This document shows positions 8,699 to 55,958 of a DNA stretch of 64,000 nt, one piece after another. Origin of the DNA: Nitrospirota bacterium (GTDB taxonomy: Bacteria; Nitrospirota; UBA9217); the NCBI GenBank assembly GCA_963751455.1, contig CAVVUN010000009.1, forward strand, positions 96,001 to 160,000, read 5' to 3'. The notes under the pieces were generated by a model, which saw only the letters and a list, made by a program, of their open reading frames with translations, did not search any database and had not been told where the DNA came from. Within the stretch, counting starts at the first letter, position 1. Every line of letters starts with the position of its first letter. Position numbers and translations under genes: made by a program.

Positions 8699-9778
8699 AT
8701 GGAGGATGACACTCTTTACAAAAGTCTTAAGAAAAGGGGTGTATCGAGAAGGGAATTTATACAATTCTGTGCATCGATGGCCGCTACTCTGGCGCTGCCT
8801 CCTACTTTTGTAGCGACAATAGCAGAGGCCCTTGAGAAAGCCAAGAAGCCTACGGTAGTATGGCTCGAATTTCAAGACTGCTGCGGCGATACTGAATCCA
8901 TGCTGAGAGCATGGAAGCCGAGCATCGGGCAGCTGGTGCTCGATATCATATCCCTCGATTATCATGAGACCATCATGGCGCCGGCCGGCAAACAGGCCGA
9001 GAAATCGCTCTATGACGTGGTTAAAAATCAGAAAGGAAAATATCTCGTCGTTGTGGAGGGTGCGATACCGCGAAAAGACGGGGGGGTATATTGCACGATC
9101 GGAGGCAGAACCGCAGTACAGATTGCAAAAGAAGTGTGCGGCAATGCAGCCGCTTCCCTGGCTGTCGGGTCGTGCGCAGTATGGGGAGGCATCGCATCAC
9201 CGCGTCCCAACCCGACCGGAGCAGTAGGCCTTGAGGATGTTGTGGGCGGCGCGATCGTAAATCTCCCCGGCTGCCCGATGAATGTCGATAATGTTACTGC
9301 CACGATAGTCCACTACCTTACCTTCGGATCGTGGCCGCAGCTCGACAGCCGAAAGCGACCGCTCTTCGCGCACGGTGTCAGGGTCCATGATAAATGCGAA
9401 CGCAGGGCCAATTTCGACGCAGGCCAGTTTGTGAGGCAATGGGGTGATGAAGGCCACCGGAAGGGCTGGTGTCTTTATGAAATGGGCTGCAAAGGTCCTG
9501 AGGCATATTTCAACTGCCCAAGCGTCCGGTGGAACGAACATACCAGCTGGCCTGTTAAAGGCGGTCATGGCTGCATAGCATGCGCAGCGGATCATAACTG
9601 GGATAAAATGTCGCCAATGTATGCGAGGCTGCCCGGTGTTCCGGGATTCGGAATCAATAGTACTGCGGACAAAGTCGGGGCCGGCATAGCAGTAGCTACA
9701 GCTGCCGGGTTAATAGCCCATGGCATCGGAAGGGCTGCAGCGAAAAAGAAAGAACGGGATGAAGGAACGCCGGAGTAG
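8699..9778 (+). CDS. Group 1 [NiFe]-hydrogenase small subunit 1 (Tat signal, C-terminal TM anchor)
   Basis: SRREF Tat motif; QDCCGD, GSCA, PGCP, HDKCERR, CLYEMGCKGP, GCIAC; SD AGGAGG before ATG 8699. Confidence 0.93.
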   Translation: MEDDTLYKSLKKRGVSRREFIQFCASMAATLALPPTFVATIAEALEKAKKPTVVWLEFQDCCGDTESMLRAWKPSIGQLVLDIISLDYHETIMAPAGKQAEKSLYDVVKNQKGKYLVVVEGAIPRKDGGVYCTIGGRTAVQIAKEVCGNAAASLAVGSCAVWGGIASPRPNPTGAVGLEDVVGGAIVNLPGCPMNVDNVTATIVHYLTFGSWPQLDSRKRPLFAHGVRVHDKCERRANFDAGQFVRQWGDEGHRKGWCLYEMGCKGPEAYFNCPSVRWNEHTSWPVKGGHGCIACAADHNWDKMSPMYARLPGVPGFGINSTADKVGAGIAVATAAGLIAHGIGRAAAKKKERDEGTPE

Positions 9779-9866
9779 AGGAATAAAATAGAATTTCAAA
9801 TACTGTATTTGAATATTATATCCGGATTTAGATATTCGAGCTTAGTATTTTCTAAAGGAGGATCTC

Positions 9867-11574
9867 ATGGCAAAGATCGCGATAGATCCGATCACCAGGA
9901 TAGAAGGACACTTGAGGATCGAGGCGCAGGTCGAGGGCGGCAAAGTCGTGGATGCATGGTCGTCGAGCACCATGTTCCGGGGGCTCGAGATCATTGTGAA
10001 GGGGCGCGATCCCCGGGAGGCTTGGCTCTTCGTCCAACGCATCTGAGGGGTCTGAACCACGGTTCACGCCACCGCCTCGGTGAGAGCGGTTGAAAACGCA
10101 TTAAAGATCCAGATACCGGATAACGCGAGAATCATTCGAAACCTGATCACGGGCATTCAGTACGTGCAGGACCATGTTGTGCATTTCTACCATCTGCATG
10201 CGCTCGACTGGGTGGACATCGTAAACTCGCTTAAAGCAGACCCAACGAAAACATCTTCTCTGGCCCAGTCGCTCTCCGATTGGCCGAATTCCTCGGCGAC
10301 CTATTTCAAGGGCGTGCAGCAGAAGGTCAAGGGGCTTGCCGAAAGCGGGCAGCTGGGACTCTTTGCTAACGCCTACTGGGGCCACCCGGCCTACAAACTG
10401 CCGGCGGAAGCAAATCTTATGGCGGTTGCGCATTATCTCGAAGCTCTCGAATGGCAGCGCGATGTCATCAGAATGCAGGCGCTGCTTGGGGCGAAGAATC
10501 CCCATGCCCAGACGTATCTGGTGGGCGGGGTATCCATTCCTGTTGACCCAAGCAGCCAGGAGGCCCTGAACGCGGGAAGCATCGCGTTCATGAACGATAT
10601 ATCGCAGAAGGCTCTCGATTTCGTTCAGAGGGTTTACATCCCTGACCTACTCGCGGTAGCGTCCTTCTATAAGGACTGGGCCTCCTACGGCGGCGGCGTT
10701 GGAAATTATCTCTCGTTCGGCGAGTTCCCTAACGACGGGGAAAGCAACACCGCGAATCTGTGGCTGCCGAGGGGCATTATCAAAGGGAAAAACCTGGCGA
10801 AAGTCGAGCCTGTGGACCAGGCGAAGATCATGGAATACATCACTCATTCCTGGTATGAGTATAAGGAAGGCGACGCCAAATCGAAGCACCCCTGGGACGG
10901 GGAGACTGATTTCAAATATTCCGGACCGAAACCGCCGTATGAATTTTTAAATACGGACAAGAAATACAGCTGGGTGAAGGCACCGCGTTATGAAGAGGCA
11001 CCAATGGAAGTCGGTCCTCTTTCGAGAATGCTGGTAGCGTACGCATCCGGTCATAAGCAGGTTAAGGATGCAGTTGATATGGTCCTGAAGAAACTCGGTG
11101 TCGGTGCCGGAGCGCTCTTCTCCACGCTCGGCAGAGTAGCGGCACGTGGCGTGGAGACGCTGCTTACCGCTCAGATGCTCCCTGTCTGGATAGCACAGCT
11201 TGGCGAGAATATGAAAAAGGGAGAACTGCGGATCCACAACGGAGATAAATGGGACCCCTCGTCTTGGCCGAATGAGGCCAGAGGGTTCGGGTTCCATGAA
11301 GCACCCCGCGGCGCGCTCGGTCACTGGATCGTCATCAAGGACAAGGCGATCGCAAATTACCAGGCGGTCGTACCGAGCACGTGGAACGGATCTCCGCGCG
11401 ACGCAAAAGGCCAGGGGCCCCTGGGAGCAGGCGCTCATCGGCACCCCGGTAGCCGACCCGAACAAACCGGTCGAAATCCTGCGCACGATACATTCGTTCG
11501 ACCCGTGCATGGCGTGCGCGGTCCACGTCGTGGATATGGAAGGAAAGGAAGTGACGAGGGTAAAAGTGGCATGA
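9867..11574 (+). CDS. Group 1 [NiFe]-hydrogenase large subunit 1 with two in-frame TGA codons (UxxU) in the L1 motif and a frameshift near 11413
   Basis: SD AAGGAGG; MAKIAIDPITRIEGH...RGLE...QRI-TGA(10044)-GV-TGA(10053)-TTVH, in frame with ORF 10080; C-terminal SFDPCMACAVH lies in the frame of ORF 11272-11574. Confidence 0.88.
10071..10090 (+). promoter_or_regulatory. Candidate bacterial SECIS hairpin
   Basis: ACCGC-CTC-[GGT]-GAG-A-GCGGT; G-first loop 23 nt after TGA2 and 32 nt after TGA1. Confidence 0.55.
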
Positions 11575-11642: not shown

Positions 11643-11714
11643 CGTCATGCCGGACTTGATCCGGCATCCAGAAAGTTATGAAAAGACCGGATTCCAGCTT
11701 TCGCTGGAATGACG
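11643..11714. repeat. REP-like palindromic element between large subunit and cytochrome b genes
   Basis: CGTCAT...ATGACG ends; internal hairpins ATGCCGGA/TCCGGCAT and ATTCCAGC/GCTGGAAT. Confidence 0.7.
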
Positions 11715-11779: not shown

Positions 11780-12445
11780 ATGCCTCAAAATACGAGAATA
11801 CGGGTGTACGCATGGGAATTTCCGGTCCGGTTCACGCACTGGATGAATGCGCTCTGCCTCGTGGCCCTCAGTATCACCGGGTATTACATCGCGTATCCGT
11901 TCATCCATGCTGTGTCGACCAGTCAGAACATCATGGGGTGGATGCGGTTTATTCACTTCGTGTCAGCGTACGTTCTCCTGATGATGATCATCATCAGGAT
12001 CTACTGGATGTTTGCGGGCAACCGCTATGCGAGCTGGAGGGTTTTTATCCCGCTTACAGGGCGTCAGTGGGAGGACATGTGGGCGGGGCTGAAGTTTTAT
12101 CTGTTCATGACGAGAAAGCCTCCCTACGCAGTCGGGCATTCTGCAATGGCGTCGATTACGTATCTGGCAGTCTTCCTCCTGTTCCTCTTCGAAATCGCGT
12201 CCGGCTTTGCGCTTTACTCACAGGGCAACAGGGGGTTCTTTAACGCTGTCCTGGGCGGCTGGCTTCTGGCGTTCATGAACGTGCAGACGATACGGTTGTG
12301 GCACCATCTCGTTATGTATTTTCTTCTGGTCTTCACAATCATCCACGTGTATATCGGCTGGTATCTCGACAGCGCCGAGAAGAACGGGGTCATGGGATCC
12401 ATATTCGGAGGCTATAAGTTCGTCACCGGAAAAGAGTGGGAATAG
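11780..12445 (+). CDS. [NiFe]-hydrogenase b-type cytochrome subunit 1
   Basis: VRFTHW, RFIHF, GH, RLWHH, IIHVY heme His motifs; 4 TM. Confidence 0.92.
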   Translation: MPQNTRIRVYAWEFPVRFTHWMNALCLVALSITGYYIAYPFIHAVSTSQNIMGWMRFIHFVSAYVLLMMIIIRIYWMFAGNRYASWRVFIPLTGRQWEDMWAGLKFYLFMTRKPPYAVGHSAMASITYLAVFLLFLFEIASGFALYSQGNRGFFNAVLGGWLLAFMNVQTIRLWHHLVMYFLLVFTIIHVYIGWYLDSAEKNGVMGSIFGGYKFVTGKEWE

Positions 12446-12516: not shown

Positions 12517-13068
12517 ATGAAAAAGAATCAAACAAAAAAATCTCAATATGTGACCGTCCTCGGACTCGGCAATATTCTCCTTTCCGATGAAGGCGTGGGT
12601 GTGCATGCCGCATGCATGCTGAGGAAAAAATATTCTTTTACTCCCAAGGTCGAGATCATTGACGGCGGCACAATGGGTCTCGACCTTCTACCGCTTTTTC
12701 AGGACCGAGATCGCATACTGATCATGGATGCAGTAGACTTCGGAAAGCCGCCGGGCCACATCGCAATGGTCGAGGGAGATGCTATCCCATCAGTACTCAA
12801 ATCAAAACTATCCGTCCATCATATCGGCCTCTCCGATCTGCTTCTAGCAGCAAAACTGACGCGTCATACCTCTCTTGAAATTTGTCTCGTGGGCATCCAG
12901 CCGCAATCCTTGGATATCGGTCTCGAATTAACGGAAGGGATCCGCACCGGGATGGACGTTTTAATCAAGAAGGCAGTTCAGAAGTTGACAGAATGGAATA
13001 TCAGCTGTAACGCTCGATCGGCACCTCACGAAGAAAATATCTCCAACCTTCTTCAATTGTCTTTATAA
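12517..13068 (+). CDS. Hydrogenase maturation endopeptidase (HyaD/HybD family) 1
   Basis: GLGNILLSDEGVG, DGGTMG, DAVD, SVHHIG. Confidence 0.92.
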   Translation: MKKNQTKKSQYVTVLGLGNILLSDEGVGVHAACMLRKKYSFTPKVEIIDGGTMGLDLLPLFQDRDRILIMDAVDFGKPPGHIAMVEGDAIPSVLKSKLSVHHIGLSDLLLAAKLTRHTSLEICLVGIQPQSLDIGLELTEGIRTGMDVLIKKAVQKLTEWNISCNARSAPHEENISNLLQLSL

Positions 13069-13273: not shown

Positions 13274-13384
13274 TAATCCGGCTGTAACCTTCTGCACCAG
13301 TTAGCAGTGTTCCTGGAAAAATAATAATCTGAACAATAATCGTTTCAGTGTTTTTTCGTCAATTAACCGACAAGGAGGATGCTT

Positions 13385-14494
13385 ATGGGTAAGAAAGACG
13401 AAGTAAGCAGCCAGTTTCTCGATGCGCTCGAGTTCCGGGGCATCAAACGAAGAGATTTTTTAAAGTTTTGTACTGCAACCGCCGCCCTTCTCGGACTTTC
13501 TGAATTCCAGGCCCCTCAAATAGCCGCAGCCCTGGAAAAGGCTGCCAAGAGACAACCTGTTGTCTGGCTTAATTTCGCATCCGATTCAGGATGCACCGAA
13601 GCATTCATCAAGGCAACCTACCCGAATCCAGCCCAAGTCATCCTCGATATCCTGAGCGTTGATTACAACGAAACCATTATGGCCGCGGCCGGCAAACAGG
13701 CGGAAGAAATACTTGCCTCATCAGCGAAGGCCGGCGGCTATATCCTGATCGTAGAAGGTGGCATCCCGACCAAAAAAGGGCACGGCATGATCGGGAACAA
13801 GGAAATGCTCGATGTGCTGAAGGAAATGGCAGCGCCCGCTGTTGCCGTGATCGCAATCGGCAGCTGCGCAACCGATGGAGGCGTGCCGGCCGCGAAGCCG
13901 AATCCCTCGCAGATCATTGGCACCGGCGAGGCGCTCAAGAAGGTCAATATCAGCAAGCCGCTCATCAATCTTGATCTCTGCCCCGTGAATCCGGAATACC
14001 TTGTCGGTGTGGTGGTCAATTATTTGCTTCTCGGGAAGATCCCGGATCTCGATGGCTTCGGAAGGCCGAAGATGTTCTATGGACAGACGATACACGACAA
14101 CTGTGAACGGCGGGCGCACTTCGACGGAGGCAGATTTGTCGATAAATTCGGCACTCAGGAAGAGGCTTTGGGTTATTGCCTGTACAAAATGGGCTGCAAG
14201 GGGCCGATGACCTATTCCGCATGTCCAAAGATCCAATACAATGACCGGACGAGCTGGTGCATCAAGGCCGGCGGGCCGTGCATCGGCTGCGCTGAGCGGG
14301 GATGGACGGACAAGTTTGCAGGGTTCTATGAACCCCTGCCCGGAGTGAAAATACCGGGTCTGGGCGGCGTGGAGGCAGGTGCCGATAAGATAGGGGCAGT
14401 TGCCGCAGCGGCCACGGCCGTCGGCATCGCGATTCATGCAGCAGCAACGGGAACTTCCGGAAGGACCAAAGAAAAAGACGGAGGTAAAAAATAA
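13385..14494 (+). CDS. Group 1 [NiFe]-hydrogenase small subunit 2 (Tat signal, TM anchor)
   Basis: KRRDFLK; ASDSGCTE, GSCA, DLCP, HDNCERR, CLYKMGCKGP, PCIGC. Confidence 0.93.
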   Translation: MGKKDEVSSQFLDALEFRGIKRRDFLKFCTATAALLGLSEFQAPQIAAALEKAAKRQPVVWLNFASDSGCTEAFIKATYPNPAQVILDILSVDYNETIMAAAGKQAEEILASSAKAGGYILIVEGGIPTKKGHGMIGNKEMLDVLKEMAAPAVAVIAIGSCATDGGVPAAKPNPSQIIGTGEALKKVNISKPLINLDLCPVNPEYLVGVVVNYLLLGKIPDLDGFGRPKMFYGQTIHDNCERRAHFDGGRFVDKFGTQEEALGYCLYKMGCKGPMTYSACPKIQYNDRTSWCIKAGGPCIGCAERGWTDKFAGFYEPLPGVKIPGLGGVEAGADKIGAVAAAATAVGIAIHAAATGTSGRTKEKDGGKK

Positions 14495-16086
14495 TGGCCA
14501 GGATAACCATAGACCCGATGACAAGGATCGAAGGACATCTGAGGATCGATGTCGAGATCGAAGGCGGCAAGGTAAAGGACGCATGGACAACCGGTACGCT
14601 GTTCCGGGGCTTCGAGATCATCCTGCAGGGAAGAGACCCGAGGGATGCCTGGCATATAACGCAGCGGATCTGCGGAGTCTGCCCGACGTCGCACGGCCAT
14701 ACCTCCTCCATGAGCATGGATGATGCCTTCAAGGTTAAACCGCCGGACAACGGCCGCATCATAAGAAATATCGTAGAAGGCGCACAGTTCGTACATTCCC
14801 ATATCCTCTGGTTCTATCACCTGAACGCTCTGGACTATGTCGATGTTGTCTCGGCCTTGAAGGCCCAGCCCAAAGAGGCCTCCCTCAAGAAAGTGCAGAA
14901 CAAACTCAAGTCCTTTGTCGAGTCCGGGCAGCTCGGCCCGTTCGCAAACGCATACTGGGGGCACCCTGCATACAAACTGCCGCCTGAGCTCAATCTCCTT
15001 GCTGTCGCCCATTATCTTGAAGCGCTGGAAATGCAGGCAAAGGCCGCCCAGGTGAGCGCGCTCTTCGGCGGAAGGATGCCGATGACGATGACGAGCCCAC
15101 CCGGAGGCGTAACCCATGTGCCTACAGTGGACGATCTCAAAAACTATCTCTTCAGGGTCAAGGAACTGCAGGACTGGATCGACAATGTTTACATCCCGGA
15201 TGTGCTCGCGATTGCGCCCTTCTACCTGAGCTACGCAGGCGTGGGAAAGGGCCACGGCAACTTCCTGTCCTGGGGTGTTTTTGAAGACGCTTCGTTCGAT
15301 CCCAAGAAACGGCTCCTGCCGAGGGGAGCCATATTCGCCGCTGATTTCCCCAAGGTGCATGATGCGAAGCCTGAGGACGTGACAGAGCATACATCCCACA
15401 GCTGGTACAAGGGTGGGAAACCGCTGAATCCGGCCGTGGGCGAGACGGACCCGGATTACACCGGGTACGATTCGAACAAGAAGTATACCTGGGCCAAGGC
15501 GCCCCGGTTCCAGAACAAGCCCATGGAAGTGGGCGCCCTTGCCAGGATGCTCGTGGCATATGCCACAGGACAGCCCACTGCCAAGAAGATGATCGACGAC
15601 ACGCTCGCGAAGATAGGGCATGCCGGGCAGCCGCAGGTGCTTCTGGGTGTGGTCGGCAGAATCGCAGCGCGCGCGCTGGAATGCAAAATGATCGCGGATG
15701 CGATGTACCAATGGGGCATCGACCTTGTAACGAACATAAAGAACGGGAATACAGCGGTCTATAACGATTACAAGATACCCGACAAGGCGCAGGGAATCGG
15801 TCTCTGGGAGGCGCCTCGCGGAGCGCTTGGCCATTGGATCGACGTCGAAGGCAAGAAGATCAAGAACTACCAGTGCGTAGTTCCGACCACGTGGAATGTC
15901 TGCCCCCGAGACGATAACGGGGTGCGCGGACCGATCGAGCAGGCGTTGGTTGGAACTGCCGTTGCCGACGCCAACAAGCCTCTTGAAGTGATGCGGGTAG
16001 TCCATTCCTTCGACCCGTGCCTTGCCTGTACGGTACATGTGATCCATCCCGAGTCGAACCGGATTATGGACTTCAAGGTCTCATGA
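14494..16086 (+). CDS. Group 1 (1a-like) [NiFe]-hydrogenase large subunit 2, all-Cys
   Basis: RIEGH, RICGVCPTSH, SFDPCLACTVH plus cleavable tail. Confidence 0.95.
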   Translation: MARITIDPMTRIEGHLRIDVEIEGGKVKDAWTTGTLFRGFEIILQGRDPRDAWHITQRICGVCPTSHGHTSSMSMDDAFKVKPPDNGRIIRNIVEGAQFVHSHILWFYHLNALDYVDVVSALKAQPKEASLKKVQNKLKSFVESGQLGPFANAYWGHPAYKLPPELNLLAVAHYLEALEMQAKAAQVSALFGGRMPMTMTSPPGGVTHVPTVDDLKNYLFRVKELQDWIDNVYIPDVLAIAPFYLSYAGVGKGHGNFLSWGVFEDASFDPKKRLLPRGAIFAADFPKVHDAKPEDVTEHTSHSWYKGGKPLNPAVGETDPDYTGYDSNKKYTWAKAPRFQNKPMEVGALARMLVAYATGQPTAKKMIDDTLAKIGHAGQPQVLLGVVGRIAARALECKMIADAMYQWGIDLVTNIKNGNTAVYNDYKIPDKAQGIGLWEAPRGALGHWIDVEGKKIKNYQCVVPTTWNVCPRDDNGVRGPIEQALVGTAVADANKPLEVMRVVHSFDPCLACTVHVIHPESNRIMDFKVS

Positions 16087-16099
16087 GAAGGAGGATGCC

Positions 16100-16738
16100 A
16101 TGACAAACCAAATGACAAAAGAGTGGAGCCTTGGCTACATCCTCGATCACTGGCTCAGGGTGGCAGCCATAGCTGTGCTTATTTTTACCGGCCTTTATAT
16201 TCACTGGCCGTTCATTCCGGGCGGGCCAGAAAGCTTCATCATGGCCTCGATGCGGTTCTTCCACTTTGTGGCGGCGTATGCGCTGATCCTGGGGCTCGTT
16301 CTGCGGGTATATATGGCGTTCCGGTCCACGTTCGATCCCGACTGGAAGGACTTTTGCGTAAGCGAAAACCTGAAAAACCTTCCGGACATCATGGGCTACT
16401 ATCTTTTTATAAAGAAGTCGCATAAAGACTACCGGAAGTACAACCCGCTCCAGGCACTATCGTATCTGTTTGTAGCCCTGGTTATCATATTCACGGCCTT
16501 TACCGGGGCGGCTATCTACCACGGAAGGCTGTTTATGGTATTTCCCCAAGACAGTTTCCGGTGGGTGAACTCGATGTTTGGCGGGGAGCCTTATACCAGG
16601 ATATGGCACATTCTGTCCATGTGGTTTTTTATCATCTTCATGCTGATCCATGTCTACATGGCGTTGATGATATCCTGGGTGAATAAAGACAGGACCTTTT
16701 CATCGATTTTCACCGGTTACAAACTGAAAAAAGATTAA
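16100..16738 (+). CDS. [NiFe]-hydrogenase b-type cytochrome subunit 2
   Basis: DHW, RFFHF, YNPLQ, RIWH, IHVY. Confidence 0.9.
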   Translation: MTNQMTKEWSLGYILDHWLRVAAIAVLIFTGLYIHWPFIPGGPESFIMASMRFFHFVAAYALILGLVLRVYMAFRSTFDPDWKDFCVSENLKNLPDIMGYYLFIKKSHKDYRKYNPLQALSYLFVALVIIFTAFTGAAIYHGRLFMVFPQDSFRWVNSMFGGEPYTRIWHILSMWFFIIFMLIHVYMALMISWVNKDRTFSSIFTGYKLKKD

Positions 16739-16740
16739 TT

Positions 16741-17247
16741 ATGATATTGAATGAAGAGTTGCGGGGAGGCGTCTCAGCGCTTCCCCGCAAAGTTTTGATA
16801 CTCGGTGTAGGCAACCTGCTCCTCACGGACGACGGCTTCGGCGTCCATCTGATCAATTCCCTCAAAGAAACGATTTTCCCGGAAAATGTATCCCTGCTCG
16901 AAGCAGGGACGGTCAGCCATCAGTTGGTCCCGCTGCTGCACGAGATGGACCACCTGATCGTTATAGATGCGGTTCAGGCCGGCGATGCGCCTGGTGCGCT
17001 GTTCCGTTTTTCGCCGGAGGATATCCGTTATCAGTCCGAGCAAATGGTCTCCTTGCACCAGATAAGCCTGATTGACGTTTTGCGGATGGCTGAACTTACG
17101 GGTCGAAAGCCGAAGACCGTCATTATCGGTGTCCAGCCGAAAGACGTTTCCTCGTGGTCGCTCGAGTTGACAGACGAACTCAGGGCGGTAATGCCCCGGG
17201 TCAGGGAACTGGTATTTGAAGAACTGAGGAAAATTGAGATCCTGTGA
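16741..17247 (+). CDS. Hydrogenase maturation endopeptidase 2
   Basis: GVGNLLLTDDGFG, IDAV, SLHQ. Confidence 0.92.
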   Translation: MILNEELRGGVSALPRKVLILGVGNLLLTDDGFGVHLINSLKETIFPENVSLLEAGTVSHQLVPLLHEMDHLIVIDAVQAGDAPGALFRFSPEDIRYQSEQMVSLHQISLIDVLRMAELTGRKPKTVIIGVQPKDVSSWSLELTDELRAVMPRVRELVFEELRKIEIL

Positions 17248-17364
17248 CAGTGGAACACAAGGCAAGGGCGGGAATAGTATCCAAAGTCTTGACAGTTCCT
17301 CTCATATGTGCGATATATAAATTCAGGGCCTTACTTCGTTTAACGGTTAGATCGGACTGTTTCA

Positions 17365-17904
17365 ATGTGTCTTGCAATTCCCTCTAGAATTATCAGCATA
17401 AACAATTTATTTGCCACCGTTGACGTTTTCGGCGCCAGGAAAGAAGTGAGCCTCATGCTCATGCCCGAGGAGATCACGATCGGGGACTACGTCCTGGTCC
17501 ATGCCGGTTTTGCAATCCAAAAAGTCGATAAAGAGATCGTCGAAACGGGAAAATCCATGCACGAAACCGCTCTTGCACTCAGTATTCTGGATATCATAGT
17601 GGAAAAATGCAGTGAAGCAGGCGGCCGAACAGTCGATTCCGTAAGGGTCAGGATCGGGAAGGCCGCCGGCGTGCTGCCTGAGGCGCTTCAATTCGCGTTC
17701 GAGGCGGCAAAGACTACCACCGTTGCGGAAAAGGCCGAGTTGATCATAGAGAGTGTACCCGTGGGAGGGTCGTGCAATGATTGTAAAAAAGATTTTTCCG
17801 TTGACGACGTTCCTTATGTATTCGCCTGCCCGCTCTGCGGCTCCAAAGCGTTCGAGATCAAGACAGGACGCGAGATGGAAATCGTTGACATGGAGGTAAA
17901 TTAG
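17365..17904 (+). CDS. HypC-HypA fusion
   Basis: MCLAIP...GDYVLVHAGFAI (HypC) runs in frame into MHE...CNDC...CPLC (HypA, ATG 17557). Confidence 0.88.
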   Translation: MCLAIPSRIISINNLFATVDVFGARKEVSLMLMPEEITIGDYVLVHAGFAIQKVDKEIVETGKSMHETALALSILDIIVEKCSEAGGRTVDSVRVRIGKAAGVLPEALQFAFEAAKTTTVAEKAELIIESVPVGGSCNDCKKDFSVDDVPYVFACPLCGSKAFEIKTGREMEIVDMEVN

Positions 17905-17917
17905 CCCCGAAAATTTC

Positions 17918-18023
17918 ACCGCGAAGACGCTAAGGACGCGAGGAAGTCTCTAAGGGCGGAAAGTATTATCTGCCGTAAAGATAGGTGTCCATGGTTTCCT
18001 CGCGCTCTTCGCGCCCTCGCGGT
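17918..18023. repeat. Inverted-repeat element built from ~9-mer units
   Basis: ACCGCGAAGACGCTAAGGACGCGAGGAA ... TTCCTCGCGCTCTTCGCGCCCTCGCGGT. Confidence 0.7.
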
Positions 18024-18052
18024 TAGTCCCGTTTTGCTCTTTGGAGGTTTTT

Positions 18053-18697
18053 TTGAAAGTTAAAGTTGTAACCCGCATACTCGAAGCGAATGACCGTATC
18101 GCAGATGAGAACCGGAAGCGGTTCAAGGAAGCCGGGGTCTACGTCGTGAATCTTATGGGCGCACCGGGAGCGGGCAAGACCACGCTGCTCGAACGGACGA
18201 TCCGGGAGCTGAAGCCACACACGAGGATCGGCGTAATAGAAGGGGACATTGTCGGGACCGACGACGCTGAACGGATCGGCGCTCTCGATGTTCCCGTGGT
18301 CCAGATCAATACCGGCGGCGCCTGTCATCTCGACGCGAATATGATCAGCGAAGTCCTCAAAGAACTGCCGCTCAAGGAACTCGATATGCTGATCATCGAG
18401 AACGTGGGGAACCTGGTTTGTCCCGCGGAGTTCAAGGTGGGAGAGGATATGAAGATGATGGTCCTTTCCCTGGCTGAAGGACATGACAAGCCGCTAAAAT
18501 ATCCTCTCATGTTTCGCGAGTCATCAGCCCTGGTCCTCAATAAGATAGACCTTCTCCCGTACATGAACACGGACATCGGGAAGGTCAGAAAAGACTCGCT
18601 CGCTCTCAATCCGCAATTAAAAATATTCGAAGTATCCTGTGCCAACGGAGCGGGGATCGATGCGTGGGCCACATGGTTGAGCGGGCTCAAGTCATAG
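18053..18697 (+). CDS. hypB: Hydrogenase nickel incorporation GTPase
   Basis: GAPGAGKT, IEGD, CHLDA, ENVGNLVCP, NKID; GGAGG before TTG. Confidence 0.95.
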   Translation: MKVKVVTRILEANDRIADENRKRFKEAGVYVVNLMGAPGAGKTTLLERTIRELKPHTRIGVIEGDIVGTDDAERIGALDVPVVQINTGGACHLDANMISEVLKELPLKELDMLIIENVGNLVCPAEFKVGEDMKMMVLSLAEGHDKPLKYPLMFRESSALVLNKIDLLPYMNTDIGKVRKDSLALNPQLKIFEVSCANGAGIDAWATWLSGLKS

Positions 18698-21060
18698 TAA
18701 AAGGCATCGTCCAGGGAGTAGGCTTCCGGCCCTTTGTCTTCAATCTGGCGGAATCCCTCGGGCTCAAAGGCTACGTGACGAATACGGGCGCCGGGGTGCT
18801 TATCGAGGTCGAGGGCGAATATCTTCGCTTATTTTTGGAACGCTTGAGCCGTGAGGCGCCTCCGCTTTCCCGGGTTACGGATATTTCAGTTACCCGTCTT
18901 CCCTGTTACGGTTATTCCGATTTTTCGATTCAGGCCAGTATTGATTGCGCTGAAGGCCATCCGTTTACACTCGTCTCTCCCGATGTTTCCGTATGTGATG
19001 ATTGCGTGCGGGAATTCACAGATCCGGCAGACCGGAGATATCTCTATCCCTTCATCAACTGCACGAACTGCGGACCCCGGTTTTCGATTACAAACGCGGT
19101 GCCGTACGATAGGCCGAATACGACAATGGCTTCTTTCGGCATGTGTCCGGATTGCCTTCGTGAATACCATGATCCTCGGGACCGCAGGTTTCACGCCCAG
19201 CCGAATGCCTGCCCGAAATGCGGACCAACAGTCGAATTCAGAGTCCGGGGTGCTGAGCGCCGAGTGAAGGGGACAGATGCAATCAGAGAGACAATAACAC
19301 TGCTGAAACAAGGCGGCATTGTGGCCGTCAAAGGCATTGGTGGTTTTCATATCGCATGCGATGCAGTGAACAACGATGCTGTAAGGATGCTTCGCGAAAG
19401 AAAAAGAAAAAGCAATAAGCCGTTTGCGGTTATGGCGCCTACGGCAGCGGCAGCACAATCTTTCTGCTCGATATCGAAGGAGGAGGAGATGCTTCTTCAA
19501 TCGAACAGGCGGCCGATCGTCCTTCTCAAAAAGCAGGGTGGCGGGTTGTCTGATGACGTAGCACCAAACAATCAGTACGTCGGCGTTATGCTTCCTTATA
19601 CGCCTCTGCATTATCTTCTTTTTCATCATTCTCTCGTTAGGGGGCAACGCGTCGTGGACTCGCATTTCACGGCACTGGTAATGACCAGCGGAAACCTTTC
19701 CGAAGAGCCGATCATCCGGGACAATGACGATGCTCTGAAGAAGCTGGCACATATTGCTGATGGTTTTCTTCTGCATAATCGTGATATCTTTATGCGGGTC
19801 GACGACACGGTCATCCGATTGCGGAGTGAAAATACAGCAGTTTTGTCATCTCAATCCAAAATTTGTTTCATCCGCCGCTCTCGCGGCTATGCCCCCGATC
19901 CGATCGCTCTTCATGACGACGGACCCGAGGTCCTGGGGTGCGGGGCCGACCTTAAGAATACATTCACATTGACCAAAGGAAAATTTGCCATTCCGAGTCA
20001 GCATATCGGCGACATGGAAAATTATGAGACCGTCAGGTTCTACGAAGAGAGCCTTGAGAACCTGAAGGCAGTTTACCGGGCTGATCCGAAGGTGATTATC
20101 CACGATCTGCATCCGGAATACCTGTCCACTAAATGGGCGATAGAATGCGGAGTCAGGAGTGCCGAGTTCGGAGTGAAAACGTATGGTATCCAGCATCACT
20201 ATGCGCACATCGGTTCGGTCATGGCGGAACATGGCCTTAAAGACAAGGTTATCGGGGTCGCTTTGGATGGGACAGGCTATGGTACGGATGGCAATCTCTG
20301 GGGTGGAGAATTTCTTATCGCTGGTATAGACGGGTTTGAGAGGGCAGGACAATTCCAGTATGTGCCTCTTCCTGGCGGTGAAGCAGCAATCAGAGATCCC
20401 TGGAGGACTGCGGTAAGCTATATAGCGGAATCTGAAGGAGCGGGATTATGGGAAAGTTTGGAAATTGCAGGCTTTAAAAGAAAATACGGGAAAGACCTTC
20501 TGGAGAAGGTCATAAAGATTGCCGCATCGAGGGAACTGTCTCCTCTTGCCTCAGGAGCCGGCAGGCTGTTCGATGCTGTTTCAGCGCTCCTCGGTATCTG
20601 CGATAGAAATACATTTGAAGGCGAGGCTGCAATGGCATTGGAATCCTTTACTTGCGACGGCATTGAGGACGAGTATCCGTTTGAGTTGCGAGAAAAAAAA
20701 GAATATACTGTCGTACAATTCAGCACAACATTCAAGGCGATCCTGTCCGATATGGCGGAAACAGTAAGTACTGAAAAGATGTCGACCCGCTTTCATAATA
20801 CTGTGATATCGGCCATACGCAGGACTGTAGGAAAGATAACAGAACAGTCCGGGATTACTGACGTCGCGCTGAGCGGCGGAACGTTCCAGAACAGGTATAT
20901 TTTGAATAAAACGCTGACGGCGCTTTCGTCAGACGGTATGCAGGTTTACACCAACCTGAATGTTCCCTGCAATGACGGAGGCATTTCACTCGGTCAGGCA
21001 TACCTGGTCAGGGAGAGGCTTAAGGAGTGCGGAATTCGAAGTGCGGAGAGCGGAGTTTAG
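18673..21060 (+). CDS. hypF: Carbamoyltransferase HypF
   Basis: GIVQGVGFRP, zinc fingers CTNCGPR and CPKCGP, KGIGGFH, QHHYAH, DGTGYG, NDGGISLGQ. Confidence 0.96.
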   Translation: MVERAQVIVKGIVQGVGFRPFVFNLAESLGLKGYVTNTGAGVLIEVEGEYLRLFLERLSREAPPLSRVTDISVTRLPCYGYSDFSIQASIDCAEGHPFTLVSPDVSVCDDCVREFTDPADRRYLYPFINCTNCGPRFSITNAVPYDRPNTTMASFGMCPDCLREYHDPRDRRFHAQPNACPKCGPTVEFRVRGAERRVKGTDAIRETITLLKQGGIVAVKGIGGFHIACDAVNNDAVRMLRERKRKSNKPFAVMAPTAAAAQSFCSISKEEEMLLQSNRRPIVLLKKQGGGLSDDVAPNNQYVGVMLPYTPLHYLLFHHSLVRGQRVVDSHFTALVMTSGNLSEEPIIRDNDDALKKLAHIADGFLLHNRDIFMRVDDTVIRLRSENTAVLSSQSKICFIRRSRGYAPDPIALHDDGPEVLGCGADLKNTFTLTKGKFAIPSQHIGDMENYETVRFYEESLENLKAVYRADPKVIIHDLHPEYLSTKWAIECGVRSAEFGVKTYGIQHHYAHIGSVMAEHGLKDKVIGVALDGTGYGTDGNLWGGEFLIAGIDGFERAGQFQYVPLPGGEAAIRDPWRTAVSYIAESEGAGLWESLEIAGFKRKYGKDLLEKVIKIAASRELSPLASGAGRLFDAVSALLGICDRNTFEGEAAMALESFTCDGIEDEYPFELREKKEYTVVQFSTTFKAILSDMAETVSTEKMSTRFHNTVISAIRRTVGKITEQSGITDVALSGGTFQNRYILNKTLTALSSDGMQVYTNLNVPCNDGGISLGQAYLVRERLKECGIRSAESGV

Positions 21061-21061
21061 C

Positions 21062-22120
21062 ATGAAACAAATGCTTCAGGAAATGCATACACTGGCCGAG
21101 GGCATCGGCAGGCCGATTAAACTGATGGAGGTCTGCGGAACCCATACGGTCGAAATATTCAGGCATGGGGTGAGGGACGTTATTCCTAAAAGCATCACGC
21201 TTCTCAGCGGTCCTGGATGCCCGGTTTGCGTTACTTCGGTTCGCGATGTTGATGCCGCAATTGCTATTGCAAGCGTCCCGGGCGTCATTTTAACGACGTT
21301 CGGGGACATGATGCGCGTGCCCGGTGGAAAGCAGTCAATGCTCGAAGCCCGTTCGGAAGGCGCGGACATCCGTGTCCTCTATTCGCCGATCGACGCCCTT
21401 TCGCTTGCGCAAAAAGAAAAAAGCCGCGAAGTGGTTTTTTTCGCGACCGGCTTCGAGACAACATCTCCGCTCATCGCGGGGACAATCGCCCATGCCGAAC
21501 AGGCAATGGTTCGAAACTTCTCAATATATACTGCGCACAAACTGGTACCTCCTGCGTTAAAGGCATTGCTGGATTCGCCCGATGTGAAGGTCGACGGTTT
21601 TATCCTTCCCGGCCATGTAAGCACGATTATCGGGAAAAAACCGTACGAATTCGCGGCATCTCAGTATCATATACCTTCAGTGATTACCGGTTTCGAGGCA
21701 GGGGAGATCATAGAAGGAATCCTGATGATTCTCAGGCAGATCGCGCAAAGGCGCGCCGCTGTCGAGATCCAGTATGTAAAAGCGGTAAAGGCAGAGGGGA
21801 ACCCGCGGGCTGTAGAATTGCTGGAAAAATATTTCGAACCGGATGATGCATACTGGCGAGGCATTGGGGTAATTCCGAACAGCGGATTAAAACTGAGGGA
21901 GGCGTATTCCTCATTCGATGCGAACAGGAAATTCAAGCCTCCTGCATCTGACGCTGTCGAACCGGAGCTTTGCTCCTGCGGTGATATCCTGCGGGGCGTG
22001 AAGATACCGACCGAATGTGCCTTATTCGGGACAGGCTGTACCCCCGAGTCTCCGATCGGTCCCTGCATGGTAAGCACAGAAGGAAGCTGCGCCGCATACT
22101 ATAAATACGGACAAAGATAA
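21062..22120 (+). CDS. hypD: Hydrogenase formation protein HypD
   Basis: MEVCGTH, GPGCPVC, GFETT, PGHVS, CMVSTEGSC. Confidence 0.96.
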   Translation: MKQMLQEMHTLAEGIGRPIKLMEVCGTHTVEIFRHGVRDVIPKSITLLSGPGCPVCVTSVRDVDAAIAIASVPGVILTTFGDMMRVPGGKQSMLEARSEGADIRVLYSPIDALSLAQKEKSREVVFFATGFETTSPLIAGTIAHAEQAMVRNFSIYTAHKLVPPALKALLDSPDVKVDGFILPGHVSTIIGKKPYEFAASQYHIPSVITGFEAGEIIEGILMILRQIAQRRAAVEIQYVKAVKAEGNPRAVELLEKYFEPDDAYWRGIGVIPNSGLKLREAYSSFDANRKFKPPASDAVEPELCSCGDILRGVKIPTECALFGTGCTPESPIGPCMVSTEGSCAAYYKYGQR

Positions 22121-22243
22121 AATTCCAATCACAAATCCCAAATAACAACCAAACTTCAAGATCCAACGTTTGAAACGTTTGAAATTTCATAATTGAAATT
22201 TGGAGCTTATTTGTGATTTATTGCTTGTAATTTGGATCTTTAT
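22118..22243. repeat. AT-rich heptamer-periodic inverted-repeat element
   Basis: AAATTCCAATCACAAATCCCAAATAACAA ... TTGGAGCTTATTTGTGATTTATTGCTTGTAATTTGGA. Confidence 0.6.
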
Positions 22244-22262
22244 ATTTCACTTCGAGGTGTTC

Positions 22263-23252
22263 ATGGACAGAATACTCCTGGGTCACGGCAGCGGTGGAAA
22301 GCTCATGCACGAGCTCATTACCCGTCATTTCAGTCCTGCCTTCGGCATCAAGGGGTCCGGTGACTCGGCTGTCTTAGACGTCCCCCCGGGACGGCTTGCT
22401 TATACAACGGATTCCTACGTGGTTACCCCGCTTTTTTTCCCGGGAGGTAATATCGGCGACCTTGCGGTGAACGGCACCGTGAACGACCTCGCAGTTTCCG
22501 GAGCTGAACCGCTCTACCTGACAGCGGGCTTCGTCATCGAAGAAGGTTTTCTCCTGTCAGACCTCAAGACCATTGTTGCCTCCATGGCGTCTGCTGCTTC
22601 AAAGGCCGGTGTCAAGATCGTTGCCGGCGATACCAAGGTTGTGAATAAGGGCAAGGCTGACGGCATATTCATCAATACATCAGGCATTGGCGTTCTTCCC
22701 GACGGCAGGGAGAGTTCCGCCGCGCGGATCAGGAAAGGGGACAAGATCATCATCAGCGGGGAAATAGGCTGCCATGGCGTTGCGGTCATAGCAGAGAGAA
22801 ACGGACTCACCTTCGATCCGGCGATTATGACCGACACCCGCGCCCTCAATGAAGTGGTCCGGAGCATGTATTCAGTGTCGCAGGAAATCCACTTCATGCG
22901 GGACCCTACGCGCGGAGGCCTTGCCACGACCCTGAAGGAAGCAGCTCTCGAATCCGGACTGTGCATGCGAATCCGGGAGAACGCTTTGCCGGTGCCTCCA
23001 GGCGTCAAGGGCGCCTGCAGCCTTCTCGGACTCGATCCGCTGTTTGTTGCGAATGAAGGCATCCTGATCGCCCTTGTTGGTCCAGACGTCGCAGAATCCG
23101 TCCTTTCTGCGATGAAAAGGCATGACCGTCAAGCTGCAATTATCGGAGAGGCAGCTGAAACGCCTTCGGGAATGGTCCTGCTCGAAACGGCGATCGGAGG
23201 CAGCCGTATGATTGACATGCTCCAAGGGGAACAGTTGCCGCGAATATGTTAA
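22263..23252 (+). CDS. hypE: Hydrogenase formation protein HypE
   Basis: HGSGG, TTDSY, GDTKV, RDPTRGG, C-terminal LPRIC. Confidence 0.96.
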   Translation: MDRILLGHGSGGKLMHELITRHFSPAFGIKGSGDSAVLDVPPGRLAYTTDSYVVTPLFFPGGNIGDLAVNGTVNDLAVSGAEPLYLTAGFVIEEGFLLSDLKTIVASMASAASKAGVKIVAGDTKVVNKGKADGIFINTSGIGVLPDGRESSAARIRKGDKIIISGEIGCHGVAVIAERNGLTFDPAIMTDTRALNEVVRSMYSVSQEIHFMRDPTRGGLATTLKEAALESGLCMRIRENALPVPPGVKGACSLLGLDPLFVANEGILIALVGPDVAESVLSAMKRHDRQAAIIGEAAETPSGMVLLETAIGGSRMIDMLQGEQLPRIC

Positions 23253-40192: not shown

Positions 40193-43100
40193 ATGAAAGT
40201 TGCGACAAGCAACAGCGACATTATTCGTATAATAAATGGTAAACGGGAGGGAAAGATGCGCAACGACACCGGAGCGCTGCGAGCAAGAGGGGAGTTTCTC
40301 GCCACCTGGATGCGGAAAATGAAGGGAATGTGGAAGCTGCTGGCTTTAGCAGTAATAGCCGTGATGTTCACCATGGACAGCATCGCGCTTGCTGAAGGTG
40401 AACTGATCTTTACGGTCGCTGGAGGCTGGATCGGCGACGGCGCGCAGGCAACATCAGCTGCACTGGGAAGTCCTGCCGGCGCAGCCGTTGATGCCGCCGG
40501 AAATATTTATATTGCCGATACGCGAAATAATCGGATCAGGAAAGTCGATACATCCGGCATGATATCCACCATCGCGGGTAACGGAATAATGGGGTATTCC
40601 GGTGACGGCGGGCCGGCGACATCGGCCAGCCTGAATAGCCCGGAGGGTGTTGCAGTAGACGCAGCGGGGAACATCTACATCGCGGACATGAATAACAGCC
40701 GAATCCGAAAGGTCGATCCTGCAGGAGTGATTACAACCTACGCAGGAAACGGCACATCGGGATATTCCGGCGACGGCGGGGCCGCTTCAGCAGCCGCAAT
40801 AAACAGGCCGTGGGGCATAGGCATCGATTCCGCGGGGAATCTATTTATTGCGGATTCGAACAATAACCGGATCCGGAAGGTCGACTCGCTCGGAATCATC
40901 ACTACCGTTGCGGGCAGCGTAAGCTACGGTTTTTCGGGAGACGGCGGACAGGCTATATTCGCAGCGCTTTCGATGCCCCGCGGCGTTGCCGTTGATCCTT
41001 CCGGTGTTATGTTCATTGCGGACTGGAATAACAGCCGGATCAGGAAGGTTGATGCATCTGGTGTCATAACAACGTTCGCGGGAAACGGGATCCGCGCCTA
41101 TTCCGGAGACGGGGGACCTGCTCTCTCGGCAAGTCTATATTATCCCTCCAGTGTAGCAATTGACGCTGCACTGGGTATTGTATATATAGCAGACTCCAAT
41201 AACTATAGCGTCCGGGCCGTGGACCTTGCGTCCGGAACTATCACTACCGCGGCAGGAAACGGGACGACCGGGTTTTCCGGAGACGGAGGTCCTGCTGCCT
41301 CGGCCAATCTTGCTTACCCGACGGGCGTCGCTCTTGATGTCGGTGGCAATCTCTATATCGCGGACTCAAGAAACGCCCGGATACGGAAAGTCAATTCGTC
41401 CAACATTATTACCACAGTCGCCGGAGGATGGCTCGGTGACGGCGGGCCGGCCACAGCGGCAACAATCGGATCTGCGGGAGACGTTGCCGGTGACAGTTCC
41501 GGCAATATCTATATCGCCGAGATTTCGAATGGGGGCCGTATTCGAAAAGTGGACACATCGGGTATTATCACCACGATTGCCGGAAACGGGACCCGCGGGT
41601 ATTCGGGCGACGGTGGACCGGCAGACGCGGCCAGTCTTTATGCGCCGCAGGGAGTTGCCCTGGACCTCTCCGGAAACATATATATTGCCGACACCAGCAA
41701 CAACCGTATCCGGAAAGTTGATGGTGCGACGAGAGTCATAACGACCGTCACCGGCAATGGGACGGCTGCTTTTTCCGGCGACGGCGGCTCTGCCGTATCC
41801 GCAAGCCTTAATCGTCCTGCAGGCGTCGCTGTAGACGCTTCGGGTAACCTCTATATCGCCGACATGAACAACTATCGTATCCGCAAGGTGGATGCTGCGA
41901 CCGGGATCATAACCACGGTCGCCGGAAACGGCAGTTCATCCTATTCGGGGGACGGCGCGTCAGCTACCTCGGCGGGTTTTTACCCTGCCTCGGTGGCCGT
42001 TGACGGGAGCGGCAATATCTATATTCCTGATTATATGAACAACAGGATCCGGAAAGTGGACACGTCCGGGATAATTACGACGTTTGCGGGTAACGGAACA
42101 CGCGGATTTTCCGGCGACGGAGGAGCTGCGACGTCTGCGACACTGAGTTCTCCGCAAGGTGTCTCCGTTGATGGATCGGGGAACATCTTCATAGCTGATA
42201 CAGGGAATTATCGTATACGGGAAGTGGACACCGCAGGAATCATTACGACCGTGGCCGGAAATGGATTGGCGGGATATTCCGGGGACGGGGAAACGGCCGT
42301 TTCGGCAAGCCTCAACAGCCCTCAGGACAGTTACATTGATGCGTACAGCAATATATATATTGCAGACACAGCGAACGGCCGCGTGAGAGTGGTCTGGAGC
42401 GGCCAAACCGTGACATTGCAAGAGGTCGTGGTCGATTCATCAGGAAACCGTCTAGCGGGGGCATACATAACCGTAGTGGGGAACCCGTCTTTATCCGCAT
42501 ACAGCGACGCTAACGGAGTCTTTCAGCTGCCTGTTCCCCAGGGCATCCCGTTCTCGCACAGTATTGCCAAAATGGGATATCGTACTTTGTACACGAGCCC
42601 CCGCATGCTGACGGCATCAAGTCTCACCTATAGACAGAGAGTTCTGTACACCGACAGCGAAGTAGCTGCATGGGGAGTAAATCCGGGATTCAGCGCTATC
42701 CGGGGAAGGGTAATAGATTCATCAACCCATGAAACCATATACAATGCGTCTCTCAGAGCGGTCAGTACTTTAAACCCCGGGTTAACGTATTCCGTAATCT
42801 ACGATGATCTCTGCAGCACGGGCACCGGTACGCGTACCTGTTATTACACTGTGATCAATGTTGCGCCGAATGATCCTGTCATGCTCACGATATCAGCGCA
42901 GGGCTATATCTCCGCAGAGGTAATATATAATCCGCTGTCTGCCGATTCCGTGGGAAGTGCGATCACTTGGCTCACTAAGATCGCGGACAGCTCCAGCTAT
43001 ATCTCTACGCTCACCGGGACATGGACCAGTATTGCATCTACACAGACCGAAACGGTCAACATATCGGTGCGCAGCGGGACCTCGCTGTATACGGCATCCG

Positions 43101-51695: not shown

Positions 51696-52751
51696 ATGGG
51701 CGAATATCAAACAGACCAGTACGATATGTGCGTGGGGGTCGAGGAAGAACGCCATCTCACCGCAACGCTGAATAACCTCGTCAAGAGCATCACGGAAATC
51801 ATGGGAGTAAAGGGCTCTTCCATACGGCTTTTGGACGAAAGAAACGGCTATCTCCAGGTCGTAGCCGCGTATGGCTTAAGCAAGTCCTACCTGGACAAAG
51901 GTCCGCTGCTGCTTTCAGAGAACCCGATCGAACGGGAAATCCTTGCGGGAAAAATTGTGAGCACGCTGGATGTCACGAAGGAGGCCGGGGCCATCTACCG
52001 GGAAGAAGCGGAACGCGAAGGGATCAAGTCGATCATGAATGTTCCGCTTATGGCGGAAGAACGCGCGATCGGAATCGTGAGAGTATATACGGCTGAACCT
52101 CATGAGTTTACCCACGAGGAAACAGAACGCCTGAGGTCCCTGGCGTCCTTCGGGGGGGTGATCGTAGAACGGGCGAAGCTCTGGGACCAGACGCGCGCTC
52201 TTGTCTGCATCGCGAGGTCCATAAGTTCGTCACTGTCGCTTGGCGAGGTCCTTCAACTGATCGTGGAAAACGCAGTCAGTGCCCTCGGCATGAAGGCCTC
52301 GTCCATCCGGCTCCTTGACGAAAGCAGGCGGACTCTCGAAGTGAAGGCTGCGGCGGGTTTGAGCCCTGCGTATCTTGCAAAGGGTCCCATCGAGATCGGA
52401 AAGAGCCCTGTCGACCGGGAGTGCCTTTCGGGGAAATGCATAGCCTCGCCGGACATCAGCAAGGACACCCGGCTTCAATACCCGGAAGAAATAACGAAGG
52501 AAGGCATCGAGGGCATGCTCACGGTCCCGCTCAGCGTCAAGGGCAGGGCAATCGGAGTTCTCCGCATATACACCTCCGCGCCGTATGAATTTTCCTCATC
52601 GGAAATAGAATTCCTGAATGCGCTTGCGTCCTTCGGCGCCATAGCGATAGAGAACGCCCGCCTCTACGGACACGTCAAAACCGAATACGAGGAACTCACA
52701 AAAGATGTCTGGAAATGGTATGACTGGGGGTCCCGGTTCCCGAATATCTGA
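51696..52751 (+). CDS. Tandem GAF-domain protein with no output domain
   Basis: Two repeats of SSIRLLDE...GLS..YL.KGP...VPL...AIG..R.YT. Confidence 0.85.
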   Translation: MGEYQTDQYDMCVGVEEERHLTATLNNLVKSITEIMGVKGSSIRLLDERNGYLQVVAAYGLSKSYLDKGPLLLSENPIEREILAGKIVSTLDVTKEAGAIYREEAEREGIKSIMNVPLMAEERAIGIVRVYTAEPHEFTHEETERLRSLASFGGVIVERAKLWDQTRALVCIARSISSSLSLGEVLQLIVENAVSALGMKASSIRLLDESRRTLEVKAAAGLSPAYLAKGPIEIGKSPVDRECLSGKCIASPDISKDTRLQYPEEITKEGIEGMLTVPLSVKGRAIGVLRIYTSAPYEFSSSEIEFLNALASFGAIAIENARLYGHVKTEYEELTKDVWKWYDWGSRFPNI

Positions 52752-54674: not shown

Positions 54675-54692
54675 TTGCGGATTGCGGAATGC

Positions 54693-54728
54693 ACCCTGCA
54701 CTCGCGCTATGCACTCATACGCGCTGGG
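54693..54728. repeat. 36-bp dispersed repeat, copy 2, inside a GCGGAwT heptamer tract
   Basis: Matches 4830-4865. Confidence 0.75.
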
Positions 54729-54860
54729 TGTAAACGGATTGCGGAACGGAAAAAACGTATTGGTAGCCGCAGGCTTTAGCCTGCGAGGTAGAGTTGTAGA
54801 ATCCATGCTGATGGGTTAAATAAGACGATCGTTAATCAATTAATTGTAGGGGAACCGGGA

Positions 54861-55652: not shown

Positions 55653-55740
55653 TGAGGCAACCTTCTGAATCGATAAGCAGAACCTGGATCTTGAAACTTC
55701 TATCCGCAGATTTCGCAGATATACGCTGATTTTAAATAAA

Positions 55741-55870: not shown

Positions 55871-55958
55871 TAAAGTTATAACATCTTATTATTAACAGTC
55901 TCATAATAGTGTGTACATCATTTCGAGAATCCCTCCTAACCTCCCTTTTCCAAGGGAG

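Follow-up and report, generated by a model that had tools for sequence, protein, structure and literature searches.

Within a 64,000-nucleotide stretch of a Nitrospirota genome (hereafter, the window) lies a [NiFe]-hydrogenase large subunit gene in which two TGA codons occupy the positions of the two N-terminal nickel-binding cysteines. The locus raises two questions: whether these codons are stops in a dead gene or are recoded and, if they are recoded, which amino acid is inserted. Below, UxxU, CxxU and CxxC denote N-terminal motifs with TGA at both positions, at the second position only and at neither, and the source genome is the genome that contains the window.

A hydrogenase operon with two in-frame TGA codons

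The operon, its neighbour and the features discussed in the text are as follows (window coordinates; all on the plus strand).

8699..9778, +, hydrogenase small subunit with a twin-arginine signal and a C-terminal hydrophobic tail (TIGR00391, 429.6 bits)
9855..9861, +, Shine-Dalgarno sequence AAGGAGG (from sequence)
9867..11574, +, large subunit gene, group 1f-like, ATG at 9867; frameshifted in the present assembly
10044..10046, +, TGA codon 60 in RI∗GV∗TTVH, predicted to encode selenocysteine (Sec); matches Cys76, the terminal Ni ligand in Hyd-1-type enzymes (from alignment)
10053..10055, +, TGA codon 63 in RI∗GV∗TTVH, also predicted to encode Sec; matches Cys79, which bridges Ni and Fe (from alignment)
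10071..10090, +, SECIS-like hairpin, apical loop from 10079 (from folding and alignment of relatives)
11412..11421, +, frameshift at a G4C4 run, where the assembly is 2 nt short relative to orthologues and most likely wrong
11500..11517, +, C-terminal motif DPCMAC, both Cys encoded by TGC, ahead of a cleavable tail
11572..11574, +, TGA acting as the genuine terminator of the large subunit gene
11780..12445, +, b-type cytochrome subunit (TIGR02125, 159.3 bits, above the cut-off)
12517..13068, +, hydrogenase maturation protease (TIGR00072, above the cut-off)
13379..23252, +, second group 1 hydrogenase operon, all-Cys, followed by hypC-hypA (fused), hypB, hypF, hypD and hypE

An initial annotation of this DNA had described a strong Shine-Dalgarno sequence, a start at ATG 9867 and TGA at codons 60 and 63 on the cysteine pair of an RICGVC motif, a description that both the sequence and the alignment bear out. 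Aligning the large subunit with the Hyd-1-type chain 4C3O maps codon 60 to Cys76, the terminal Ni ligand, and codon 63 to Cys79, the bridging one (PMC13582414). The gene was also said to continue in frame for about 450 codons. With both TGAs read through, the frame from ATG 9867 does stay open until about residue 515, but DPCMAC, which uses TGC codons as described, sits in another frame. The small subunit, cytochrome b and protease genes are intact, as had been stated, with open frames that match family profiles.

Several features place the enzyme among group 1 hydrogenases. RIEGH, QDH and APRG motifs align with group 1 structures, and the conserved Glu, Asp and Arg are present together with both Ni-binding motifs. 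The best PDB match of the large subunit is 3MYR (660 bits), which we take to be a group 1e enzyme, followed by Hyd-5, Hyd-1 and Desulfovibrio enzymes. In the small subunit, the proximal cluster motif reads QDCCGDTES, in which the second proximal Cys is replaced by Asp. This Asp, together with a 71%-identical protein inside the clade that its source names 'hydrogenase, group If' (P0103), leads us to classify the large subunit as group 1f-like. Asp or Asn occurs at the proximal position in 37/50 UxxU and 42/44 CxxC relatives scored; the substitution is a group 1f feature that is also found in other subgroups (PMC5364354).

The CCGD sequence of the small subunit (8699-9778) provides an additional Cys adjoining the first ligand. 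CCGD and CCGN are minority forms among relatives, the others having CAGD, CAGN or CAGC. A short palindromic repeat (11644-11713) separates the large subunit and cytochrome b genes, and its 28-nt left part is present in seven copies in the genome. In the second operon, HypC and HypA are fused in a single 179-aa frame (17365-17904); the same fusion occurs at 11 loci of relatives and is thus no assembly artefact. The window also contains a third hydrogenase operon (52705-58614), presumably group 3b-like by its layout, whose large subunit gene is closely preceded by an insertion element of the integrase family (56003-57163, minus strand), and a 3780-aa protein with NHL beta-propeller repeats and C-terminal InlB B-like and Ig-like domains (40193-51535).

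Conservation of the double TGA

We identified the double-TGA pattern, searched in degenerate form, in 54 of 401 sampled genomes of the phylum, representing 41 of 162 genera. The reversed pattern, used as a control, was found in 0/401. This difference agrees with the earlier argument that two random nonsense mutations at exactly these codons are unlikely. Orthologues with exactly these two TGAs, which the initial annotation had proposed to look for, are present at 74-83% identity in 7 of 60 relatives, and 11 of the 60 carry a paralogue with TGA at the second position only. Four Nitrospirota families have UxxU in 7/7, 4/4, 4/4 and 7/9 of their genomes.

UxxU accounts for 12 of the best 80 genome_contigs loci, including deltaproteobacterial and Anaerolineae (Chloroflexota) records; the closest named records among these 80 are Nitrospirae MAGs (82-83% identity). 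A metagenome scan matched at least 117 stretches; at least 87 of these are frames for hydrogenases, a figure obtained by subtracting the 21 genome-locus entries from 108 UxxU entries. An extra UxxU match in one genome (G330) was discarded as it does not lie within a long frame.

The gene downstream of the TGAs appears to be maintained. All 58 full-length UxxU frames are open through to an all-Cys C-terminal motif, and none of the 58 has a C-terminal U. For the five of 14 window pairs with a computable dS (dS being saturated in the other nine), dN/dS downstream of the TGAs is 0.067-0.086; the relaxed ratio that had been named as a sign against recoding was not seen.

A SECIS-like hairpin downstream of both codons

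The hairpin that follows the two codons has eight pairs and a folding energy of -10 kcal/mol. Its loop starts 23 nt beyond UGA63 (+24) and 32 nt beyond UGA60 (+33). The bacterial SECIS consensus comprises a loop of 3-9 nt that has G within its first two positions, a stem of 4-16 bp, a distance of 16-37 nt from the UGA and an MFE of -7.5 or below (PMC13188914); the window hairpin falls within these limits for both UGAs. Taken alone it is not significantly stable (z -1.52; 15/200 shuffles fold equally well).

Across the subfamily, we scored distinct sequences for a hairpin of at least five pairs whose loop spans +25, is no longer than 6 nt and has G within its first two positions. Such a hairpin is present in 81/82 UxxU and 24/27 CxxU sequences vs 10/54 CxxC sequences, and G occupies +25 in 109/109 TGA types vs 23/54 Cys types. 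Covariation is seen in the outer pairs (A-U/U-A/G-C), with 0.73 paired vs 0.65 in shuffled data, a comparison among non-independent kin in which adjacent residues vary alongside.

Two other selenoprotein genes of the source genome offer a reference for spacing. The FDH-N hairpin has its loop at +24 and the SelD hairpin has its loop G at +34, an arrangement found in 13/31 selD genes and missing in 18/31. Both spacings that decoding from one hairpin would require thus occur in other selenoprotein genes of this organism. We infer that a single hairpin may serve both UGAs, a possibility that Takano et al. also raise for Group 4 hydrogenases (PMC13582414). An alternative hairpin spanning UGA63 was rejected: it lies too near UGA60, and the Val codon that it requires is present in only 60/82 UxxU genes.

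Elsewhere in the source genome, a 1120-codon frame (L463; C2:437441-440800, minus strand) contains one in-frame TGA, in YTGCUG, with a hairpin loop at +24. Considered at one point as HdrA, it proved to be a protein with YARHG and ankyrin domains and was dropped as a control; it may be an unlisted selenoprotein or a broken gene. Another type of hydrogenase large subunit, at L451 (G442:C63), has an N-terminal CxxU motif (RICGVUPEAH) and a G-loop hairpin. We take this subunit to be group 3c-like from its motif.

Recoding or a dead gene

Could the two TGAs be true stops or sequencing errors in a dead gene, or could UGA be reassigned throughout the genome? The dead-gene explanation draws on the fact that these are in-frame stops within an indel-prone assembly, but the identical two codons recur across dozens of independent assemblies, the frames downstream are open and dN/dS is low. 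Genome-wide reassignment was rejected: UGA is an ordinary stop in the source genome, where RF2 is present and 1059 of 2586 long frames terminate with TGA, as the large subunit gene itself does. We consider these explanations extremely improbable. Recoding rather than nonsense mutation is instead strongly supported by the conservation of the codons, purifying selection downstream, the SECIS-like hairpin and the complete Sec machinery described below. The present copy poses a separate problem, as two bases are absent at 11412-11418 relative to 14/14 orthologues. The resulting frameshift precedes DPCMAC, so that the copy as assembled cannot yield a full-length subunit. The recoded family might then be real and this strain's copy a recent pseudogene that has lost its C-terminal Ni ligands; the 2-nt gap is there in the assembly, and an all-Cys group 1 hydrogenase adjoins. 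The gap, however, falls in a G4C4 run, and fusA, rplA and selD are likewise split in the same assembly. Among 46 genes tested against relatives' proteins, four are frameshifted, the large subunit gene included. P0122, a database protein sharing 96% identity across 335 residues, is in frame through the site as far as DPCMAC. One listed DNA sequencing run (share, 0.05) gave no read piece that settles the frameshift at 11412-11421. Because other conserved genes are split too and P0122 is in frame, the shift at about 11415 is most likely an assembly error, and we regard a pseudogene as very unlikely.

Indel errors split conserved genes such as rplA, fusA and selD across the source genome's assembly, and other apparent pseudogenes of this genome therefore call for caution.

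Selenocysteine or cysteine at the two sites

The initial annotation had called for a search for selA, selB, selC and selD, and all are in the source genome: selA, selB, a TGA-type (Sec-type) selD and a canonical tRNA-Sec. We found selA in 18/20 UxxU, 25/27 CxxU and 23/34 CxxC genomes, the two UxxU genomes without it being 86-89% complete. TGA-type selD is present in 36/36 genomes tested.

The proposed search for a UCA-anticodon tRNA that might carry Cys was also productive. Beside yedF, the source genome encodes a 95-nt tRNA-ReC-like gene with a UCA anticodon and U73 (C13:3947-4041). tRNA-ReC is defined by a length of at least 80 nt, a long variable arm, a UCA or GCA anticodon and U73, and is reported to insert Cys at SECIS-dependent UGAs (PMC13582414); the gene fits this definition. 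As regards the 8/4 acceptor branch expected of tRNA-ReC, its acceptor stem has 8 bp and its T-stem has three pairs plus a T-T (T-A in 5/10 aligned genes). The source genome has no second selB or cysS (one each above the cut-off), and the tRNA gene has yedF rather than selB∗ or cysS∗ as its neighbour. According to published work, adjacent selB∗ and cysS∗ accompany selC∗ in only some Deltaproteobacteria.

We surveyed such tRNAs with two models, for the UCA and GCA types, split at 70 bits; both models contain sequences from the source genome, G048 and G056. Anticodons were checked by eye in 30 of the 37 GCA-type matches of at least 70 bits. Among 20 UxxU genomes, a UCA-type model matched only the source genome; a GCA-type, long-arm U73 tRNA is present in 23/54 UxxU genomes, the single-contig genome G048 included. 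Counting either type, a tRNA-ReC-like gene occurs in 25/54 UxxU vs 12/26 other genomes of the same families, where kin are non-independent and MAGs lose tRNAs. Twelve of these comparison genomes carry CxxU; the tRNA is present in 6/12 of them and in 6/14 of the others.

Both types are found more widely. UCA, U73 tRNA-ReC-like genes (L002, L090-L099 and L414) occur in 11 genomes of the window's family, often beside yedF, and G014 has a degenerate copy. GCA-anticodon, 8/5, long-arm U73 tRNAs (L384-L413) are present in about half of the tested Nitrospirota genomes outside the window's family, with variable arms that bring some to 125-146 nt. In G272 a GCA-type tRNA lies 6 kb from a UxxU hydrogenase.

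The initial annotation had left two outcomes side by side, a di-Sec site or dedicated UGA-to-Cys recoding. A di-Sec site is the best reading of the present data, and a real candidate tRNA exists for the alternative. Since the source genome has this U73, UCA tRNA-ReC-like gene, Cys at one or both sites is a candidate outcome: recoding would depend on SECIS and SelB, with one or both UGAs read as Cys by tRNA-ReC (selC∗), always or when selenium is limited. The enzyme would then have a mixed or an ordinary thiolate site, and the TGAs would act in translational control with no chemical change. The GCA-type tRNAs of other UxxU genomes point the same way, as do Takano et al., who report that tRNA-ReC is enriched among Group 4 genomes of the UXXU type and caution that Cys may be inserted (PMC13582414). 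Against this, tRNA-ReC-like genes are not enriched in the UxxU genomes studied here, 29 of the 54 have no match (a count that tRNA loss from MAGs can inflate), and the source genome lacks a second selB or cysS. Lasting conservation of TGA would, moreover, be easier to explain if the residue were not Cys. The missing enrichment and the 29 genomes without a match lead us to favour Sec at both sites as the likely outcome, with full or partial Cys decoding improbable though well short of negligible.

Motif states among relatives

CxxC, CxxU and UxxU forms are interleaved in the tree, the TGA/TGC alternation that had been proposed as a check on recoding. Some Cys forms lie inside well-supported TGA subclades: the Cys forms L129 and L158 group with L151 and L226, L144 (Cys) falls among CxxU forms, and L122 (CxxU) groups with L208. 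Exchange of TGA and TGC at metal-ligand positions is the usual behaviour of Sec/Cys pairs (PMC13188914). All-Cys database proteins at 79-81% identity, compared as protein sequences only, also interleave with UxxU proteins, which indicates that Se is dispensable for the fold.

Apparent support for a CxxC to CxxU to UxxU order of gain weakened once database proteins were added, and we do not claim it. Among the 150 listed of 221 matches there is no real UxxC form; four apparent ones lie outside long frames and are spurious.

We also identified a second, distant group 1 lineage with the motif RIUGVUPxxH and its own hairpin. It comprises at least 17 distinct metagenome sequences and is also present in genomes G450 and G406, where the gene lies downstream of a CxxCH-motif (cytochrome c-like) gene. 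Loci of this lineage are L189, L202, L240, L243, L245, L259, L453 and L454, with L452 as a CxxU form.

Proposed function and significance

We are fairly confident that this is the gene for the catalytic subunit of a group 1f-like, membrane-bound [NiFe]-hydrogenase of the H2-uptake type, in which both N-terminal Ni-ligand TGAs are read as Sec. SelB bound to the one downstream hairpin would decode both UGAs, and the Ni-Fe site would then hold two selenolates, one terminal and the other bridging, alongside two C-terminal thiolates. Electrons taken from H2 would reach quinone by way of the FeS chain and cytochrome b. As to what selenium contributes, our guess is that, in anoxic habitats, it serves to tune the enzyme's kinetics or its affinity for H2 and not to confer O2 tolerance. 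O2 protection is not an obvious purpose, since C76U and C79U variants of Hyd-1 have a lower apparent KM and poorer O2 tolerance (PMC8020662).

For the family as a whole, we lean toward a widespread natural group of respiratory H2-uptake enzymes with a two-selenolate (terminal and bridging) Ni-Fe site, usual in several Nitrospirota families and found also in Chloroflexota and deltaproteobacteria. It would have at least two origins within Group 1 (TTVH-type and PxxH-type), use one SECIS for both UGAs and be hidden by gene callers that cut off the first 71 residues. The prediction that callers split such genes is matched by 59-aa and 512-aa pieces of this gene in a public collection, and public records of these enzymes consist of 59-aa and 498-aa fragments. 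Among the best 120 database matches, 34 are N-truncated and without the L1 motif, and none carries U. Such fragment records suggest that the H2-uptake capacity of Nitrospirota is likely under-called.

All solved [NiFeSe] hydrogenases among the PDB matches are of the classical type, with one Sec at the C-terminal terminal position. This position is held to be special. Two natural Se ligands on the other motif, with close all-Cys and CxxU relatives as built-in controls, would open the role of selenium at each Ni ligand to direct test, that of a Se bridging Ni and Fe among them. UxxU genes are also a compact natural test of one bacterial SECIS recoding two UGAs three codons apart.

Comparison with known systems

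HysAB, the group 1a [NiFeSe] hydrogenase (1CC1 and 2WPN), shares with the window enzyme the Group 1 fold, a Sec Ni ligand and SelB/SECIS decoding (both predicted for the window enzyme). Its Sec, however, is the C-terminal terminal ligand (C576 position), where the window enzyme has DPCMAC with TGC codons. The canopy Asp is replaced by Ser in HysAB, whereas the window enzyme keeps it as Asp102 (Hyd-1 D118). The HysA model NF045518 gives 353.6 bits against a cut-off of 780 (residues 1-513 scored). Group 1f enzymes have the same small subunit-large subunit-cytochrome b operon and an Asp/Asn ligand at the proximal cluster (PMC5364354). HydDB describes group 1f as 'oxygen-protecting', and its Table 1 gives [NiFeSe] variants for 1a, 3a and 3c but not for 1f (PMC5037454).

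Sec has been placed at the same two positions in E. coli Hyd-1, as single artificial substitutions (Evans et al. 2021). The C76U and C79U variants retain activity (3% and 13% of the native enzyme's rate, respectively); their apparent KM is lower and their O2 tolerance worse, with near inactivation at 10% O2 (PMC8020662). In nature, two Group 1 sequences with N-terminal CXXU were reported by Baltazar et al. 2011 (as cited in PMC13582414). These have a single Sec, at the bridging position, and a terminal N-side Sec, as in UxxU, is outside the scope of that report as cited; we identified 27 distinct CxxU relatives here.

The closest parallel is the Group 4b UXXU hydrogenase described in silico by Takano et al. 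(September 2026), which has the same two N-terminal UGAs, an all-Cys C-terminal motif, a downstream G-loop SECIS, selABCD co-occurrence and a CxxC/CxxU/UxxU mosaic (PMC13582414). Their 47 Group 4 sequences have N-terminal CXXU, UXXC or UXXU, the latter two termed previously unrecognised, and the string 'Nitrospir' is absent from their text (PMC13582414). Group 4 enzymes are energy-converting and encoded in antiporter/FHL-like clusters, whereas the window enzyme is a periplasm-facing Group 1 uptake hydrogenase with a cytochrome b. Sec variants make up about 0.2% of Group 4 sequences (PMC13582414), in contrast to the 54/401 phylum genomes with Group 1 UxxU. The enrichment of tRNA-ReC reported for Group 4 UXXU genomes has no counterpart in the Group 1 UxxU genomes, and UXXC, described for Group 4, has no real Group 1 example among the 150 listed of 221 matches.

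Our literature search, which covered few subscription journals, found no published report of UxxU in Group 1, and the hydrogenase passages of a 2026 review of prokaryotic selenoproteins describe no such family. The initial annotation's 'candidate new seleno-hydrogenase class' is nevertheless an overstatement, because N-terminal UXXU is already in print for Group 4 (PMC13582414). What adds to that work is the occurrence of UxxU in Group 1 and its spread there, most likely as a di-selenocysteine Ni-binding motif.
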